Shown: positions 4,104 through 55,871, counted from the first letter of the stretch. The stretch: 64,000 nt of DNA from Gemmataceae bacterium (GCA_022616435.1 JAKEET010000045.1:18013-82012), one strand, 5' to 3'. Made by a program: numbers and translations. Notes: a model not told the origin generated them from the letters alone.

Positions 4104-5569
4104 GGGCTCCCCTTCAGAAATCGTTGCACATCGGGCAAGGGTCCATGCGGCGGCTGCCGAAGCGCGGCGCCGCGGCCGTGCAGCGGTTGGTCGCCGCCGT
4201 GGTAGCGGTGGCACTCGACGCAATCGTGCCGGGCGCCGCCCGCGACGCGGCCGCCGGCTGCGTGCGGCGGCGCGTGACATGTCCGGCAGAGTTTCACGCC
4301 GGGCAACAGCACATCGGCGGGGCCGCGCGATTGTTCCACATCCACATGGCACACGGCGCAGGCCACGCCGCGATGCGCGGTGTGGTCGAAGCGGGCGTGC
4401 TGGAACCAGACCGTCGGGATGTTCGCTGGGTCGATTCGCTGCGTCGCGCCGGTCTCGGTCAGCAGCGACGTGTGGCAGCGGCCGCAGGCGCCCTGGCCGA
4501 ACAGGATCGCTTCGGCGCCGCGGACATTCTCCTGAAGAATATCGGCGAGCTTCCGCGCATGCGCCTCCCGCTCGGGATTCTTGCCGGGCAACGGTCGCAG
4601 CGGCTGCTGGAGGAGCGACGCTCGATCCTTGATGAGGCGGTCGGTGAAGTAGCCGCGCAGCCAGGCGCGAACTTCGTCGGGCTGCAACCGGTGAGGGACG
4701 CTGGGTCGATCGAATCCCTTCGCCTCCTTGGCGAAATCCAGCGGATGGCACGCCTGGCAATGGCGGTCATAATGGATCGGGAGCATGTAATCCCCGGCGG
4801 CGCGGACGCGCTCGGGGGAAGCGCCGTCGGCGCGATGGCACGAAGCGCAATCGAGCTTGACGGGGTCCTTGTCGGCTTGCCCCGCCACGCGATAGCGCTC
4901 GCGGTGCTCGGGCGCGATGTCGGCGAGAACAAACGGCACACTCGTGTTCGCTTGCTCGCGAAGTCCGGCCGCGAGATGCAACTTGTGATTGAAGGCGATG
5001 CGGCCGGGGTCCTTGCCGTGCTCGCGGAGCACGCGGAACTCCGGATGGCGCTCGCCGAGGAAGCTGTCGACGTTCAGGAACGTCGTGGCGGCGCCGTCCT
5101 GGACATGGGCGGTGAGATTGCCGTGGCAGCGTGTGCACTGCTCGTTGGCGACGCGCCGCAAACCGGCGCTCCGGCCGCGATGCTCGCGATGACAGGTCGT
5201 GCAGCCGGCCACTTCCGCCGGCTTTTCGTTGTCGTGGTGGCGCGGTCCGGCATGGCAGGTTTGGCACTGCGCGTCGGCAGCGTGACTGGCGCCCAGGAGC
5301 GTGCCCGCCCAGTTCTGTCCGCTCAACGGTTGCGCGTTCGTGTGGCATGTGTCGCAGCGGTGTTCCCAGGTCGCGTGGACGTGGGCCAACGGGCCGGGCA
5401 GGTAGCGTGCGTCGCCGTGCCTGAACCATCCCCACAGCCAGAACAACGCCACCGCCGTCACCGCCGCGACGGGCAGCCACATCTGGGCCCGCGCGATCCG
5501 GTCGCGGCGACGATACCGCTCCGGCGGCACGTCGGCGAGGTTGTCCAGGATGGCGGCGTCGTGAGGCAT
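4100..5569 (-). CDS. membrane-anchored decaheme cytochrome c
   Basis: Ten CxxCH motifs (CDTCH, CQTCH, CTTCH, CTRCH, CASCH, CQACH, CGRCH, CAVCH, CRTCH, CVECH). There is an N-terminal TM helix (WLPVAAVTAVALFWLWGWF). Confidence 0.85.
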   Translation of the reverse strand: MPHDAAILDNLADVPPERYRRRDRIARAQMWLPVAAVTAVALFWLWGWFRHGDARYLPGPLAHVHATWEHRCDTCHTNAQPLSGQNWAGTLLGASHAADAQCQTCHAGPRHHDNEKPAEVAGCTTCHREHRGRSAGLRRVANEQCTRCHGNLTAHVQDGAATTFLNVDSFLGERHPEFRVLREHGKDPGRIAFNHKLHLAAGLREQANTSVPFVLADIAPEHRERYRVAGQADKDPVKLDCASCHRADGASPERVRAAGDYMLPIHYDRHCQACHPLDFAKEAKGFDRPSVPHRLQPDEVRAWLRGYFTDRLIKDRASLLQQPLRPLPGKNPEREAHARKLADILQENVRGAEAILFGQGACGRCHTSLLTETGATQRIDPANIPTVWFQHARFDHTAHRGVACAVCHVDVEQSRGPADVLLPGVKLCRTCHAPPHAAGGRVAGGARHDCVECHRYHGGDQPLHGRGAALRQPPHGPLPDVQRFLKGSP

Positions 5570-8747: not shown

Positions 8748-8977
8748 GACCGCTACCGCCGCCGCGCCAAGCGATTGGTGAGAGTCGCGGGGTTATCTTG
8801 GCGCGCCGGGGCCGGACAGGCAAGGATGAAAACGACCTCTCCGCGTCGCCAAGATGCGCAAGCAATGCGCGTCGCGCCGGTCAGTCACGACGAAACGCCA
8901 CGGTGGAACATGCCGGATGCTCATTCCTGCTTGACAGGCTCCGATCTGTCGAGTCATCTTAACTCACGGGGCGAGCG

Positions 8978-9052
8978 TCGCGGCGTGAGCGCGACGTGGT
9001 GTTCGAGCAGTTACTAACCCGCACACACGTCGGGCTCACGCCGCGACGCTCG
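8978..9052. repeat. REP-like palindrome family B (GGCGAGCGTCGCGGCGTGAGC … GGGCTCACGCCGCGACGCTCGCC). Related copies occur at 12537-12631 and ~47690-47760
   Basis: Inverted repeat with 21-bp arms and ~40-nt loop in the divergent intergenic region. It overlaps the 5' end of the longest ORF for the next cytochrome, which argues for a later start. Confidence 0.6.
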
Positions 9053-9070
9053 CCGTTGCTTGAGGTGAAC

Positions 9071-10495
9071 GTGCATCGGCGCCTCTTCGTACTGGGTTCC
9101 ATCCTGCTGTTCCTCGCCGCGGCGTGGGCGCGCCGCGGTCCGTCGGCTCAGGAGCCGTTGCCGCGCCGGGTTCCGACCCCTGTACGTTCCAACTTCGAGC
9201 TGCTTGGGGCCGGCTCGTGCGCCGCGCAGGCGTGCCATAACGCCGACCCTTTGAACGGGATGCAAGGCGGGGAATACCGGATCGCCTACGAGCGCGCTTT
9301 CTCGGGAGAGGCGCCGCACGTCAAGGACAAGCATGCTCAGGCGTTCGCAGTGCTTTTTGACGAACGGTCGCAGCGCATCGTTCGCCAGTGGAAAGGGCTG
9401 TCGGCAAGAGACACGGTTCATCCGGAGCGCGAAGCGTTGTGCCTTCGCTGCCACGTGCATCCGGACTACGATCGGCTTCCCGTTCGGTTCGCCGACGGCG
9501 TGGCCCAGTTTCGCCTGGAGGACGGCGTCAGTTGCGAGGCCTGTCACGGTCCGGCACAGCGCTGGCTGGCGGCGCACTTCCGGCCGGGATGGAAGAACCT
9601 GTCCTCCGCGCGCCGCGCCGAGTTCGGCATGACCGACACGCGTTCGTTGGCCGGGCGCGTGCGCATCTGCCTCGATTGTCACGGCGGCCGCCCGGACGCG
9701 CAAGTCGATCACGATCTCATCGCGGCGGGTCATCCGTGGTTGAAGTTCGAAATGGGCGATTATCACGCGCTCTGGCACAAGCATTGGGACGGCGCCAAGG
9801 ACAAGAAGCCCGGCACGGACCGGCGGGGCCGCGCCGACTTCGAGGCCCGCTTGTGGCTGGTGGGCCAGGTCGCATCCGCCAAGGCCGCGCTCGACTTGCT
9901 GGCGGCAAGGGCGCGCGATCCGAAACGTCCGTGGCCGGAATTCGCCGAGCAGGACTGCTTCGCGTGTCACCATGACTTGAGCGCGAAAGCAGGGCCGCCT
10001 GCCGAAGACGCCAGGGCCGGGGCGCCCGCCTGGAACGCGTGGTACACGGCCATGCTGCCCGCCGCGGTCGGCGAAGATGCCGCGAAGCTCGGCAAGCCGC
10101 TTGGCGAGCTGCGAACGCTGATGGCATCGTGGCGGCCGGATCGAGAGCAAGTCGCGGCACATGCTCGGGAGGCCGCCGCCCAGCTCCAGGCGTGGATCGC
10201 GGCGTGGGAACTCCACGAACCCGGGCCGCTCGCCGTCGACGCGATGACGCGACAACTGCTGGCCATGGGCGACGCACGCGCGTCACAGTCCTGGACGACG
10301 GCCGCCCAGTGGCAGCGCGCCCTATCGGGAATGGAGCGGGCGCGTCAGGATATGAAGGTGCCGGCGCCGGCCTGGTCCGTGCGGCTGCCGCTCCTGGAAA
10401 AGGCCCTGCGGCTGCCGCCCGGTTTCGCGAGTCCGCACGGCTACGATGCCGCGGCAGTCCGCGAGATCATCCGGTCCATGCACGAATCCAAGTAG
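9071..10495 (+). CDS. pentaheme cytochrome c, paralog 1 (signal peptide). The start is uncertain: GTG 9071 or 9065, and the longest ORF starts at GTG 8996
   Basis: CAAQACH, CLRCH, CEACH, CLDCH and CFACHH heme motifs. VHRRLFVLGSILLFLAAAWA is signal-like. GAGG precedes the GTG at 9071. It is paralogous to 10504..12072 and 22342..23721 (shared AAGHP[WP]L and DC[FY]ACHHDL blocks). Confidence 0.75.
   Translation: MHRRLFVLGSILLFLAAAWARRGPSAQEPLPRRVPTPVRSNFELLGAGSCAAQACHNADPLNGMQGGEYRIAYERAFSGEAPHVKDKHAQAFAVLFDERSQRIVRQWKGLSARDTVHPEREALCLRCHVHPDYDRLPVRFADGVAQFRLEDGVSCEACHGPAQRWLAAHFRPGWKNLSSARRAEFGMTDTRSLAGRVRICLDCHGGRPDAQVDHDLIAAGHPWLKFEMGDYHALWHKHWDGAKDKKPGTDRRGRADFEARLWLVGQVASAKAALDLLAARARDPKRPWPEFAEQDCFACHHDLSAKAGPPAEDARAGAPAWNAWYTAMLPAAVGEDAAKLGKPLGELRTLMASWRPDREQVAAHAREAAAQLQAWIAAWELHEPGPLAVDAMTRQLLAMGDARASQSWTTAAQWQRALSGMERARQDMKVPAPAWSVRLPLLEKALRLPPGFASPHGYDAAAVREIIRSMHESK

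Positions 10496-27031: not shown

Positions 27032-27032
<1 letters not shown>
26993..27032. repeat. REP-like palindrome family A copy (GGGAAAGGGGTCCGTCCCCTTTCCGGATAGCC)
   Basis: Hairpin directly 3' of the kinase stop codon. It is the reverse-orientation variant of the 5588 and 57243 copies. Confidence 0.6.
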
Positions 27033-30682
<3,650 letters not shown>

Positions 30683-31004
30683 CTGATCAGCCCTCTCCGT
30701 TCATCGCGAGGCTTCTATCTTGTCTATCCACTATTTGGGACGAAAGCGGCCTTCGGATCGATTGTGTCAGAGTCGTGGCATGGCCGCAAGGTTGAGTCAG
30801 GACATCTTGTTGGGCGGCTTGCCGTTTAGCGCTCACAGCATCCTGCGAGCGCGAAACGGCAAGCCGATGTCAACTCGCGAACCTTGGAGAATGTGCCGGA
30901 GTCTGCATTCCATGCGAACCGCCCGGCCGGCGGCGCTCGCGGCCCCGCAACGCGGTTGGCGGCGCGCGTTCCGTGAACGGGTTCTAACGACGGCGGTTGG
31001 CAAC

Positions 31005-31076
31005 GCGTGGTTAGCTCATTGGTAGAGCGCTAGGCTCAGGACCTAGAAGTAGTGGGTTCAACTCCCGCACCACGCT
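31005..31076 (+). tRNA. tRNA with anticodon CAG (which would read Leu CUG) but a class-I body with a 5-nt variable loop and U73 discriminator. The identity is atypical
   Basis: Manual fold: acceptor GCGTGGT/ACCACGC, D-arm TAGCTCATTGGTAGAGC, anticodon stem CTAGG/CCTAG with loop CTCAGGA (U33, G37), variable AAGTA, T-arm GTGGG-TTCAACT-CCCGC. CCA is not encoded. Confidence 0.65.
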
Positions 31077-31448
31077 CGGGGATTTCCTCGAGCACACGTA
31101 GACGCCTGAAAAGCGTTTAACCACAAGCCCGCGGGAGGCGGGCGCCCGGAGGATCTGCCGCCGTGGGGGAGGTTCCAACCTGCCCCACCTAAGCAACATG
31201 AGTCGCGGCCCTGCAGTGCGTGGATACCGCTGGGGCAGCCTCGGCAGGCCGGCAGACTCCGCCGGCGAATCTCGTGCGGCAACGCCCGCCGCATGGCTCG
31301 CTGGCCACTCTGCGACGCCCGTCGAAGGCCGCGCCAGCTCAAGCGCCACTCCGCCGCGGCACGTGGGATCGCCGGGCTGCCCCGCTTCCCAACGGCGTTT
31401 TTTTTTCGTGGGGCAAGCGAGCTGTTTGCCCCGGAGAGGAGGTCGCCC

Positions 31449-32552
31449 ATGATCCTCAAGCTCATCAAGATCCAGCGCTACGACGTGGGTCTGTACTTCA
31501 AGGACGGCGCGTTCCGCGGCCTGCTCGACGCCGGTTGGCACGTGTTGTTCCACCCGCTCGGCCGGGTCCGCGTCGATGTGGTGTCGCTGCGCTCGCCGTG
31601 GCTTTTGCACGACAAGCTCGACGTCATCGTGAAGTCGGGCGTCCTCGACGGCCGGGCCAAGGTCGTAGACCTCAAGGACTACGAGCGCGGCCTGGTGTGG
31701 ATCGACGGCCGGTTCGCCCAGGTGCTGCCGGCCGGCCTGTTCGCCTACTGGACGACGATGCGCGACGTGAAGATCGAAGTTGTCGATGCGCGGGCCGTGC
31801 GCTTCGTGCACCGCGACCTGGCGGTCATCGCGGCGTCGCCGGCGGTCGAGCGCGTGCTCGTCCAGCACACGATCCCGGCGGGCCACGTCGGCGCTCTCTA
31901 CCAGGACGGCGAGTTCATCGAGACGCTGCTGGCGGGCCGGCACGCCTTCTGGAAGGGCATTGCCGATGTGAAGCTCGTGCCGATTGACACGCGCGAGTCG
32001 ATCCTCGACGTCGCCGGCCAGGAGATCATGACGGCCGACAAGGTCACGCTGCGGCTCAATGCGCTGGTGACCTACCGGATCACGGACGCCCAGTTGGCGC
32101 TCGGCGTGGCCGATGACGCCCGCCAGGCGCTGTACCGCGAGACGCAGCTCGTGTTGCGCGCGCTGCTCGGCGCTCGCGAGCTGGACGGCTTCCTGGCCGA
32201 CAAGGACGGCGTCGTCACGGAGCTGGAGCAGGGCCTGCGGCGCCGGGCGCCGGCCCTGGGCGTGGACGTGATCTCGGTCGGCATCCGCGACGTCATCTTG
32301 CCGGGCGAGATGAAGGACCTGCTCAACAAGGTGACGGAAGCCAAGAAGGCGGCCGAGGCCAACCTGATCGCGCGGCGTGAGGAAACGGCCGCGATGCGCA
32401 GCCAGGCCAACACGGCCAAGCTGCTCCAGGACAACCCGACGCTCATGCGGCTGCGTGAGCTGGAGGTCCTGGAAAAGGTGGCCGCCACGTCGAAGCTGAA
32501 CGTCGTGCTCGGCGACAAGGGATTGACGGAGCGCGTCGTGAACGTGTTGTAA
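31449..32552 (+). CDS. SPFH/Band-7 (stomatin/prohibitin-like) domain protein
   Basis: MILKLIKIQRYDVGLYFKDGAF... and the coiled-coil-rich C-terminus are typical of SPFH proteins. A strong SD (GGAGAGGAGG) precedes the ATG 31449. The track ORF begins upstream at 31293 with a junk extension. Confidence 0.7.
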   Translation: MILKLIKIQRYDVGLYFKDGAFRGLLDAGWHVLFHPLGRVRVDVVSLRSPWLLHDKLDVIVKSGVLDGRAKVVDLKDYERGLVWIDGRFAQVLPAGLFAYWTTMRDVKIEVVDARAVRFVHRDLAVIAASPAVERVLVQHTIPAGHVGALYQDGEFIETLLAGRHAFWKGIADVKLVPIDTRESILDVAGQEIMTADKVTLRLNALVTYRITDAQLALGVADDARQALYRETQLVLRALLGARELDGFLADKDGVVTELEQGLRRRAPALGVDVISVGIRDVILPGEMKDLLNKVTEAKKAAEANLIARREETAAMRSQANTAKLLQDNPTLMRLRELEVLEKVAATSKLNVVLGDKGLTERVVNVL

Positions 32553-32744
32553 CGTAAGAATCACCACGGATTTCACGGTTCACACGGATCATGAAGGACT
32601 CTTCGATCCGTGTGATCCGTGGAATCTGTGGTTTGCCTGGTTTGGTCGCCATCCGTCGTTTTCGCTGGAAATCTGGTTGCGGCCATCGCATTCGGCGGGT
32701 ACACTTCCATTGTCAACTTCAAGCAGCCTGCCTGGGGGGATCAC

Positions 32745-33050
32745 ATGGAACAACGATTCGAAGGCAGCCCGCGCGCCATGATCTACTTGCAGGGGCGGCG
32801 CGTGCACCGGACCGAGGTCTACCACGATTGGGGCCTGCGCCTCCAGTGGGTGATCCGCCGCAACGGCCAGGTGATCGCCACCGTCCCCGCTCGCGCCGAC
32901 GCCAGCTACGAGCACCCCGACGCGGCGCCCGGCAACTACGAGATCGTCTTGCAATCGTGGAAGTACGTCAACTACCGCAAGAACCCGCAAGGCGAATTCA
33001 CCGACAGCCGGTTCATCGATATCTCGAACCAGGTGTCGTACACCGTTTGA
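32745..33050 (+). CDS. small hypothetical protein (~101 aa). The longest ORF starts at 32619
   Basis: The ATG 32745 is preceded by GGGGGGA. Translation is protein-like (MEQRFEGSPRAMIYLQGRRVHRTEVYHDWGLRLQWVIRRNGQ...). Confidence 0.4.
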   Translation: MEQRFEGSPRAMIYLQGRRVHRTEVYHDWGLRLQWVIRRNGQVIATVPARADASYEHPDAAPGNYEIVLQSWKYVNYRKNPQGEFTDSRFIDISNQVSYTV

Positions 33051-47588: not shown

Positions 47589-47663
47589 GGTGGGTGTAGC
47601 TCAGCTGGTTAGAGCGTCAGACTGTGGATCTGAATGTCGGGGGTTCGAGTCCCCTCACCCACC
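47589..47663 (+). tRNA. tRNA-His (anticodon GTG) with encoded G-1
   Basis: G-1 + acceptor GTGGGTG/CACCCAC, D-arm TAGCTCAGCTGGTTAGAGC, anticodon loop CTGTGGA, T-arm GGGGG-TTCGAGT-CCCCT, discriminator C. Confidence 0.85.
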
Positions 47664-47933
47664 CTTTGCTCATCCTCGGCAGCCGGCGAGCGTTGAAGCG
47701 TAAGCTCAACGCGCTCGCCTCCACGTCGGGCTTACGCCGCGACGCTCGCCTCCCATTTTTCTGGAAAGTCTGAACAAGAATGGTTATCTTCTGAGGAACT
47801 ACGTGACGCTGCTCGCGTATGCCGAGGTCATTCGCAAGGTCCTGCCCGGAGAACGCCGCCGCGAGGTTGCTTCGGTCAGGCGTCTGACCTCGGAAAGTTG
47901 ATTCCCACCGACGATTCCTTCCTCGAGGACGCC

Positions 47934-55769: not shown

Positions 55770-55780
55770 CGAGGAACGAG

Positions 55781-55871
55781 CGGAGAGGGCGGGATTCGAA
55801 CCCGCGGTAAGGATTTGACTCCCTACACCGGTTTAGCAAACCGGCGCTATCGGCCACTCAGCCACCTCTCC
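55781..55871 (-). tRNA. tRNA-Ser (anticodon GCT), class II with long variable arm
   Basis: Reverse complement GGAGAGGTGGCTGAGTGGCCGATAGCGCCGGTTTGCTAAACCGG-TGTAGGGAGTCAAATCCTTACCGC-GGGTTCGAATCCCGCCCTCTCCG. Anticodon loop TTGCTAA. Confidence 0.85.

Follow-up and report, generated by a model that had tools for sequence, protein, structure and literature searches.

b7a-tRNA is a predicted non-coding RNA (ncRNA) encoded beside genes for band-7 proteins and RtcB, and occasionally Rsr (Burroughs & Aravind 2016, as summarized by Wang et al., bioRxiv 10.1101/312249); the same summary describes its existence as being without experimental validation as of 2018 (bioRxiv 10.1101/312249). YrlA RNA is a tRNA mimic that has D/T elbow contacts and is not aminoacylated (Chen et al. 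2014; Wang et al. 2018, bioRxiv 10.1101/312249), and RNA-repair operons of the rtc type encode it along with its ring-shaped partner, the protein Ro60/Rsr (Chen et al. 2014; bioRxiv 10.1101/312249). Here we describe a 72-nt tRNA-shaped element at positions 31005-31076 of a 64,000-nt stretch of DNA from Gemmataceae bacterium (GCA_022616435.1 JAKEET010000045.1:18013-82012; hereafter the window, with an overall GC content of ~66%), which lies 372 nt upstream of, and on the same strand as, a gene for a slipin of the SPFH/band-7 type. The element is very probably a non-decoding tRNA mimic of the b7a type, and we place it in this computationally predicted class as a planctomycete, stand-alone member. 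The best overall explanation, which we consider probable, is that it is a tRNA-shaped ncRNA domain genetically coupled to the downstream slipin gene and the predicted RNA partner of the slipin.

Features of b7a-tRNA are present at this locus. The tRNA-like fold is recovered by Rfam, by ARAGORN and as a minimum-free-energy (MFE) cloverleaf, as well as by covariation across the family, and an adjacent band-7/SPFH gene is found in the window, in five Gemmataceae orthologues and in 14 loci of other taxa. The RtcB locus, in which b7a-tRNA lies in ‘certain bacteria’, is not found in the 64-kb window; homologous modules do occur in such settings, with RtcB at loci L038 and L043, rtcR at L208, and Rsr at L003, L040 and L048.

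ARAGORN calls a tRNA-Leu(cag) at 31005-31077 (+), and the Rfam tRNA model RF00005 covers 31005-31076 fully (66.2 bits, E 2e-13; gathering score 29). The MFE fold of the single 72-nt sequence is a cloverleaf (-29.6 kcal/mol, z -2.9), and the family model R1 scores the element at 80.6 bits. The 7-bp acceptor stem, GCGUGGU/ACCACGC, is followed by U8 and A9; the D arm consists of the stem GCUC/GAGC and a 7-nt loop, AUUGGUA, that contains G18 and G19, and is followed by G26. The anticodon arm has the stem CUAGG/CCUAG and the loop C32-U33-C34-A35-G36-G37-A38 (CUCAGGA; anticodon CAG), the variable loop is AAGUA (5 nt), and the T arm is GUGGG-UUCAACU-CCCGC. The discriminator is U73 and the next bases are CGG, so no CCA is encoded. 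Normal tRNAs of this genome that lie in the window include an ordinary tRNA-His(GUG), with G-1 and C73 and likewise without an encoded CCA, and a class II tRNA-Ser(GCU).

The preliminary description of this DNA had called the element a tRNA whose CAG anticodon does not match its class-I body, citing U33/G37, a 5-nt variable loop and U73, and every detail that it listed is right by sequence reading, ARAGORN and Rfam. Running ARAGORN, a check that the description had proposed, returned the anticodon CAG and the isotype Leu with a fold that agrees with the earlier reading. The doubt that the fold had been mis-called can be set aside, as the fold is canonical by all three approaches given above, and the long-variable-arm fold that had been named as refuting does not exist in 72 nt. 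The traits of class II tRNA-Leu, a long variable arm and A73 (a discriminator that is an identity element for LeuRS), are absent from the element, which has a 5-nt loop and U73. Because 85-nt class II tRNA-Leu(CAG) genes share loci L038 and L063 with class-I CAG elements, the two are distinct things.

A search for the parent isoacceptor by way of the anticodon stem, scanning metagenomes with TAGAGCGCTAGG-N-T-N5-CCTAG, brought up at least 120 tRNAs of ordinary types (His, Lys, Arg, Phe, Met and others) with this generic stem, among which there was no close relative and none with CAG; the scan was thus uninformative. BLAST searches with the 73 nt gave only generic tRNA similarity against phages, the best being a Caulobacter phage tRNA-Pro (83% over 57 nt), and no match against E. 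coli genomes.

Orthologous loci were found through slipin proteins 75-82% identical to that of the window, and their contigs were then read. The set consists of the window and five distinct loci with available DNA (L200, L205, L209, L210 and L211). The gap upstream of slipin measures 600-800 nt in all orthologous loci, and a homologous tRNA-like is present at the same position in all five additional ones. Flanking genes differ in every locus and are often toxin-antitoxin (TA) pairs; the RNA and slipin travel as a two-part module with different flanks in each genome. The 401-aa and 101-aa open reading frames (ORFs) and the kinase of the window have no kept counterparts in the orthologous loci besides generic kinase similarity. 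In several genomes that are not related, a TA pair (ParE/Phd, HicAB or RelE/XRE) immediately precedes the RNA-slipin module (Table 1).

In the orthologue alignment the D arm, the T arm, the anticodon stem and the inner acceptor stem (GUGGU/ACCAC) are near-invariant. The anticodon loop is CUCAGGA in the window and CCAUGAA, UUUGAC (6 nt), CUAAGGA, ACCUUAC and CGUUGGA (with G33) in the others, giving ‘anticodons’ of CAG versus AUG, AAG, CUU, UUG or a 6-nt loop. In L200, L209 and L211 the two pairs at the outer end of the acceptor stem do not match. Pairwise identity averages ~0.4 for the anticodon loop and is 0.66-0.89 for the remaining tRNA-like body; at fourfold-degenerate sites of the adjacent slipin coding sequence (CDS) pairwise identity is 0.55-0.71. 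As the loop falls below the fourfold sites, the opposite of what is expected of a decoding tRNA, a conserved CUG-reading function is ruled out in this clade.

These comparisons bear on whether the element could be a functional tRNA that reads CUG as an amino acid other than leucine, for example glycine by way of its acceptor identity set. The window copy is a perfect cloverleaf with a 7-bp acceptor stem, U33 and G36-G37, the latter being the context for m1G37 formation by TrmD and typical of tRNAs that read C-starting codons, but the anticodon and outer acceptor pairs are kept in none of the five orthologues and loop identity lies under the neutral-site level. Its G1:C72, C2:G71, G3:C70 and U73 fit the bacterial GlyRS acceptor determinants; GlyRS also needs C35 and C36, however, both of which are absent from the CAG anticodon, and the Gly-type acceptor set is itself absent in L200, L209, L210 and L211. 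No aminoacyl-tRNA synthetase paralogue was found among the genes called within ~10 kb of the element, which encode the kinase-TPR protein, slipin, DUF1501, PSCyt2/PSD1, an AMP-binding protein and an aminotransferase. The element is moreover embedded in a larger conserved structured RNA, described below, and misreading CUG would be costly because this codon is expected to be very common at 66% GC. We therefore regard a decoding role as very improbable.

The preliminary description had favored deliberate mistranslation of the tRNAProX type, which is not supported, since the loop is the least conserved part, outer acceptor pairs are mismatched and no synthetase paralogue is nearby. In the Streptomyces tRNAProX/ProRSx system, reportedly described by Vargas-Rodriguez et al. 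in 2021, the tRNAs used for deliberate mistranslation keep their anticodon and identity set, and a synthetase paralogue is dedicated to them. The window element is like tRNAProX in that anticodon and tRNA body are mismatched, and unlike it in that the anticodon varies in every orthologue, the acceptor ends decay and there is no synthetase gene nearby. The alternative that the description had held in reserve, a tRNA-like regulatory element, comes close to what the evidence indicates, a tRNA-like ncRNA genetically coupled to a slipin gene.

When 185,579 species genomes were scanned for class-I tRNAs whose loop reads YUCAGRA, a sample that is thus selected on the loop, 77 loci were obtained. Of these 42 are tRNA-like (33 called by ARAGORN and nine with defective acceptor stems) and the rest are chance matches in CDS; none is closely related in sequence to the window element. 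A full-length slipin homologue (28-65% identity by tblastn) starts 100-600 nt downstream on the same strand in 14 of the 42, and three further sequences (L035, L061 and L076) are duplicates of slipin-linked ones on contigs too short for the slipin check. Three tRNA-likes lie upstream of Rsr, the TROVE/Ro60 orthologue, and RtcB follows the tRNA-like in L043 and lies ~4 kb upstream of it in L038, inside a tRNA array. Such arrays, of 14-32 genes, end in a class-I CAG-type element and then slipin or Rsr, and those of L038, L063 and L213 hold genuine class II tRNA-Leu(CAG) genes of 85-86 nt.

When 23 family members were placed on the standard cloverleaf, 91% of cells paired, versus 32-45% in slid controls. 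Pairing reaches 99% in the anticodon stem, whose five pairs all show compensatory changes, and 100% in the T stem; the D stem does not vary. Acceptor pairs 1-4, by contrast, fail to form in 6-15 members. These pairing statistics indicate that selection preserves the L-shape together with the anticodon arm, but neither a 3’ end that could be charged nor a triplet that reads codons. They also largely refute the idea of a decaying tRNA pseudogene, or of an integration scar left by a slipin-carrying mobile element, since covariation keeps the anticodon and T stems across phyla. Flanks that differ in every genome, TA genes that are common nearby and acceptor ends that are degraded in many members would suit such an origin, but the D arm is invariant, the tRNA-like body exceeds fourfold sites in conservation and no integrase is found among the genes called beside the module. 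No tRNA 3’-half repeat was noticed in the loci read, of which no systematic repeat search was made. We consider a pseudogene or scar extremely improbable.

Since the genome scan had preselected the CAG loop, a pattern-independent sample was drawn from slipin loci found by protein alone. Here the loops are CCGUGAA and UUAGGGA in two IMG/VR loci, 6 nt long in Burkholderia stagnalis, 5 nt long in B. multivorans, a GAAA tetraloop in B. cenocepacia and UUCAUAG in Photobacterium. Given this variation the anticodon is not a defining feature of the family; YUCAGRA may be ancestral, or selected in a subset. The recurrent CAG loop, though not the tetraloop variants, would be explained by a decoy or sentinel for anticodon-loop nucleases, whose arm (ancestrally CUCAGRA, as in tRNA-Leu-CAG) would be cut by toxin or phage tRNases; slipin and RtcB would then sense or handle this cleavage or its repair. 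The recurrence of YUCAGRA in slipin-, Rsr- and RtcB-linked tRNA-likes of at least nine distant lineages while their stems covary argues for a decoy, as do the linkage of the module to RtcB and RtcR and the TA modules that often flank it. That sample was nevertheless preselected on the loop, the pattern-independent loops vary (a GNRA tetraloop, or 5-6 nt, in Burkholderia) and no nuclease is found at the locus; we know of no nuclease of this kind. On balance the decoy is improbable.

The tRNA-like sits in a 766-nt gap between a divergent kinase-TPR gene and the slipin gene, whose product carries the NCBI name “slipin family protein [Gemmataceae bacterium]”. The N terminus of the slipin has three tandem beta-rich repeats, the third of which opens the SPFH domain, and a long helix (coiled coil) follows; there is no hydrophobic N-terminal segment. 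An AlphaFold2 model was obtained at a pLDDT (predicted local distance difference test) of 80, and Foldseek groups the C-terminal two-thirds with stomatin, HflK/C and prohibitin, which head the matches, and with flotillin, all ring or cage formers. A soluble oligomeric slipin cage is plausible from the model, because of these ring- and cage-forming relatives and because the protein lacks a hydrophobic N-terminal segment. The window slipin aligns with that of the RtcB-containing L038 over residues 1-366 (38% identity, E 8e-68), with the rtcR-adjacent Citrobacter slipin of L208 over residues 4-366 (34%) and with the E. coli slipin of L206 over residues 1-345 (35%), and by sequence it falls in the same subfamily as the slipins of rtc-linked loci. 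As a candidate defense system the locus was discarded, with no PADLOC match for slipin or two neighboring ORFs.

In Citrobacter and E. coli the slipin homologue is followed by a nucleotidyltransferase gene, and the Citrobacter slipin adjoins rtcR. Model R1 found no tRNA-like in these two enterobacterial loci, where a T-arm-like hairpin is recognized by eye only; in the Citrobacter slipin leader this is GUGGGUUCGAUUCCCA, with no complete tRNA-like. A sigma-54-like element (TGGCAC-N5-TGGCA, read by eye) lies between rtcR and that leader.

The tRNA-like domain is one part of a longer conserved RNA. Conserved non-coding sequence in the six Gemmataceae orthologues spans ~30914 to ~31397, and it codes for no protein, because indels of 1-2 nt occur inside conserved stretches and the ATG of the only ORF is lost. 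RNAalifold places 152 pairs in this block of ~480 nt with 92.6% of cells paired, and 35 pairs are doubly changed versus 7-12 in slid controls. Outside the tRNA-like domain the block matches no Rfam family. Its 5’ domain has a pairwise identity of 0.70-0.92 among the six orthologues, versus the 0.55-0.71 of fourfold sites in the adjacent CDS, and its helices 1-3 are 92-100% paired with six doubly changed pairs. The small hairpin that follows the tRNA-like has a 7-bp equivalent in the five orthologues (GGACGAG...CUCGUUC), the window version being shifted. The loop of helix 9 is GAAA in L209, L210 and L211 and GCGA in L205, both of the GNRA type, and has 7 nt in the window and L200. Helices 10-18, which make up a rod-like domain, are 83-100% paired and hold most of the 35 doubly changed pairs.

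Searches with nhmmer detected weak homology of both flanks beside tRNA-likes of Planctomycetaceae, Phycisphaerales and a Bdellovibrionales metagenome-assembled genome (MAG). The 5’ domain has weak similarity directly upstream of the tRNA-likes in L028, L020 and L009, and the rod has similarity downstream of those in L020 (E 3e-6) and L050 (E 8e-5). In Steroidobacter-type loci the sequence 3’ of the tRNA-like forms an anticodon-arm-like hairpin (loop CUUCAAA or CUGAUAA), a GCAA-tetraloop hairpin and the T-arm-like GGGGUUCGAUUCCCC, which together resemble the 3’ two-thirds of a class II tRNA, with a rod of ~230 nt afterwards. From the flank homology in other taxa and these Steroidobacter-type hairpins and rod, an extended architecture around the tRNA-like seems to be general.

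A kissing-loop partner that could explain the changing anticodon was also sought, and no complementary segment occurs at a common alignment position in the orthologues. In the window only, UCAGG (31033-31037) is complementary to CCUGA (31105-31109), at the stem 3’ end and loop of the 31100-31118 hairpin. In L209, a ~110-nt repeat occurs about three times in tandem after the RNA block has ended and before slipin starts, and a 118-aa ORF is called over these copies.

The conserved block could instead be a cis-acting 5’ leader of the slipin mRNA, serving as an RNase P/RNase Z processing or stabilizing signal or as an expression sensor. The element is always on the strand of slipin, 100-800 nt before the start codon, and in Citrobacter the equivalent leader lies directly between rtcR and slipin with no intervening gene. 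The 3’ end of the block gives evidence in both directions: a T-rich run, which may be a terminator or pause site, is present there in four of the six orthologues (the window, L205, L210 and L211), which speaks against a leader, and it is absent in L200 and L209, so that termination at this run is not established. No sigma-70-like promoter was found in 30600-31500, including between the tRNA-like and slipin, with a tool whose coverage does not extend to planctomycete promoters. A conserved elbow (G18 G19, T loop) together with a 270-nt rod is more than a leader requires, and similar tRNA-likes adjoin Rsr or RtcB instead of slipin, which indicates a trans-acting RNA. An exclusively cis-acting leader thus seems unlikely, though it deserves consideration; the two roles are compatible, because operon-encoded Y RNAs are excised from mRNA precursors.

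For an RNA partner of slipin we tentatively suggest, by analogy, a ribonucleoprotein scaffold, a mechanism that we think somewhat short of probable. The RNA would be transcribed with or just ahead of slipin and would fold into a tRNA mimic. This mimic would be the RNA partner of a soluble slipin that forms rings or cages, serving it as scaffold or as bait, much as Y RNA does with Ro60, and the slipin-RNA complex would engage tRNA-binding factors or damaged tRNAs under translation stress or tRNA-damage stress. A more speculative extension, possible at best, is that the real unit is the ~480-nt RNA as a whole (5’ domain, mimic and 270-nt rod), which would be a dedicated partner of a soluble slipin cage, act in damaged-tRNA surveillance or repair, and be widespread in Planctomycetota and Proteobacteria with ties to tRNA arrays and RtcB. 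In the literature searched, neither the ~480-nt RNA nor a slipin-RNA particle was found described or experimentally seen. By comparison with b7a-tRNA as Wang et al. summarize it, the large RNA around the mimic, an anticodon that drifts and the connection with tRNA arrays are new here.

Several observations weigh against the interpretation of the element as a non-decoding RNA partner of slipin. Within its clade, the window copy resembles a tRNA most closely, with a perfect 7-bp acceptor stem, a 7-nt loop, U33 and G37, and its G1:C72, C2:G71, G3:C70 and U73 are the acceptor set of bacterial tRNA-Gly (the GlyRS determinants). Because stem, loop and acceptor set are intact, processing, CCA addition and some charging may take place with the window copy in this one organism. 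The recurrence of the YUCAGRA loop in many distant lineages suggests that the loop is under selection in some of these, and a role purely as a scaffold leaves that unexplained. Searches of the 64-kb window by tblastn and motifs gave no RtcB, RtcR, Rsr or nucleotidyltransferase, so the link to RNA repair comes by module homology only. Finally, the structure of the ~480-nt block was scored on the same six sequences from which it was derived.

Table 1. Positions of the conserved RNA, its neighbors and related features in the window and in other loci.
Feature	Locus	Position (strand)	Remarks
5’ structured domain	window	30914..31001 (+)	closing stem GAACCGCC/GGCGGUU around GC-rich branched hairpin
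tRNA-like domain	window	31005..31076 (+)	ARAGORN, Rfam tRNA, family covariation
small hairpin CGGGG-AUUU-CCUCG	window	31077..31090 (+)	directly 3’ of tRNA-like; read from sequence
hairpin AGACGC-CUGAAAA-GCGUUU	window	31100..31118 (+)	consensus helix 9, 100% paired in 6 sequences
rod-like hairpin domain, ~270 nt	window	31127..31396 (+)	with variable-size side hairpin; RNAalifold helices 10-18
T-run	window	31398..31406 (+)	3’ edge of conserved block
Ser/Thr-kinase-TPR gene	window	27032-30682 (-)	divergently oriented
slipin SPFH/band-7 gene	window	31449-32552 (+)	367 aa; Pfam Band_7 2e-25
tRNA-His(GUG)	window	47590-47664 (+)
class II tRNA-Ser(GCU)	window	55780-55871 (-)
TA pair	L200	7552-8144
TA pair	Q1	8765-9273
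TA pair	L209	2235-2787
TA pair	L210	2884-3382
TA pair	L208	3248-3939
tandem repeats	L209	3643-3990	between RNA block and slipin
sigma-54-like element	L208	5675-5700	Citrobacter
Steroidobacter-type extended RNA	L063	5270-5690 (-)
Steroidobacter-type extended RNA	L038	1910-2330 (-)
Steroidobacter-type extended RNA	L053	2975-3360 (+)
Rsr-linked tRNA-like	L003	1244-1320 (-)
Rsr-linked tRNA-like	L040	6363-6438 (-)
Rsr-linked tRNA-like	L048	215-290 (+)
tRNA array	L038	3198-7877
tRNA array	L063	6665-7942
tRNA array	L009	1974-7965
tRNA array	L040	1784-5703
tRNA array	L213	28-2375	IMG/VR
second module	L067	204-276
second module	L070	4628-4696	also L013, L041, L061
second module	L045	6505-6579
second module	L207	~5195-5225
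slipin-linked tRNA-likes	L017, L020, L022, L050		Planctomycetaceae
slipin-linked tRNA-like	L009		Phycisphaerales
slipin-linked tRNA-likes	L038, L053, L063		Steroidobacter-like Gammaproteobacteria
slipin-linked tRNA-like	L067		Wenzhouxiangellaceae
slipin-linked tRNA-like	L036		Competibacter
slipin-linked tRNA-likes	L013, L041, L070		Bradyrhizobium
slipin-linked tRNA-like	L045		Neomegalonema
slipin-unlinked class-I CAG tRNA	L060	5517-5590	Urbifossiella, Gemmataceae
slipin-unlinked class-I CAG tRNAs	L011, L014, L015, L021, L023, L046, L047, L049, L057, L066, L073, L074

In several Proteobacteria a second tRNA-like module, or a lone T-arm-like hairpin (both entered as ‘second module’ in Table 1), adjoins the slipin-linked tRNA-like, and ARAGORN labels such second modules “Tyr(ata)”, “???(ga)” or a 75-nt “Ser(gct)”. 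The Rsr-linked CAG tRNA-likes, which come from Acidobacteriota and one cyanobacterium, have a common 5’ acceptor strand, UACAUAC, and flanks that pair as a Y-RNA-like stem. Most of the class-I CAG tRNAs without a slipin link look like one-base variants of other tRNAs (Arg-CCG, CUCCGGA to CUCAGGA, or Met/Ile2, CUCAUAA to CUCAGAA) and could be real variants, pseudogenes or MAG errors.

These results remove a false lead, in that the element implies no genetic-code ambiguity and pipelines that label it “tRNA-Leu(CAG)” are wrong. They add planctomycete members to the b7a-tRNA class, which the summary cited above presents as a comparative-genomics prediction only, and they place the elbow and the anticodon stem under selection but not the anticodon and the acceptor end, in a mimic that is part of a far larger conserved RNA. 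As a self-contained module, RNA and slipin recur together next to RtcB, Rsr, RtcR and tRNA arrays, and experiments are feasible since cultivable carriers exist (Bradyrhizobium, Burkholderia). SPFH proteins are usually regarded as membrane scaffolds; a soluble slipin partnered by RNA, if true, would widen this view, and would be a ribonucleoprotein of bacteria whose logic resembles that of Ro-Y RNA or vault particles.

The vault particle is eukaryotic and consists of an MVP cage with an SPFH-like domain, vault RNA and the TROVE protein TEP1. The module described here is like the vault in joining a putative SPFH-type cage protein to a small structured ncRNA with a TROVE link, a lead only; the likeness is limited to the SPFH-cage Foldseek matches of the slipin, and the host is a bacterium. 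YrlA differs in being permuted, with a loop-closed acceptor stem, no anticodon loop and ends that form the Ro-binding stem, whereas the window element shows the ordinary topology of tRNA, anticodon loop included. The Rfam YrlA model has no match in window positions 29000-33000 at E<=1, and among the loci compared sub-threshold matches occur only in the Rsr-linked L003 and L048.

In Anabaena, mutation of trcR de-represses the slipin gene alr0740 42-fold, along with rtcB and an operon of 26 tRNAs (PMC10272220), and alr0740 is induced by chloramphenicol as part of a translational-stress regulon that includes the trn operon and TrcR (PMC10272220). The rtc locus of P. aeruginosa contains PaFlo8 (PMC13086221). 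Both alr0740 and PaFlo8 give independent support for a link of slipins to RNA repair or translation stress. The arrays of 14-32 tRNA genes that end in a CAG tRNA-like and slipin or Rsr (L038, L063, L009, L040 and L213) are like the Anabaena trn operon; the window has no tRNA array, and alr0740 is likened to its slipin as a slipin-family gene only. The closest match among these systems is b7a-tRNA. As the summary by Wang et al. describes for that RNA, modules homologous to ours adjoin RtcB or Rsr, and the window module differs in standing alone within 64 kb, in its Gemmataceae (Planctomycetota) host and in the conserved block of ~480 nt that surrounds the mimic.

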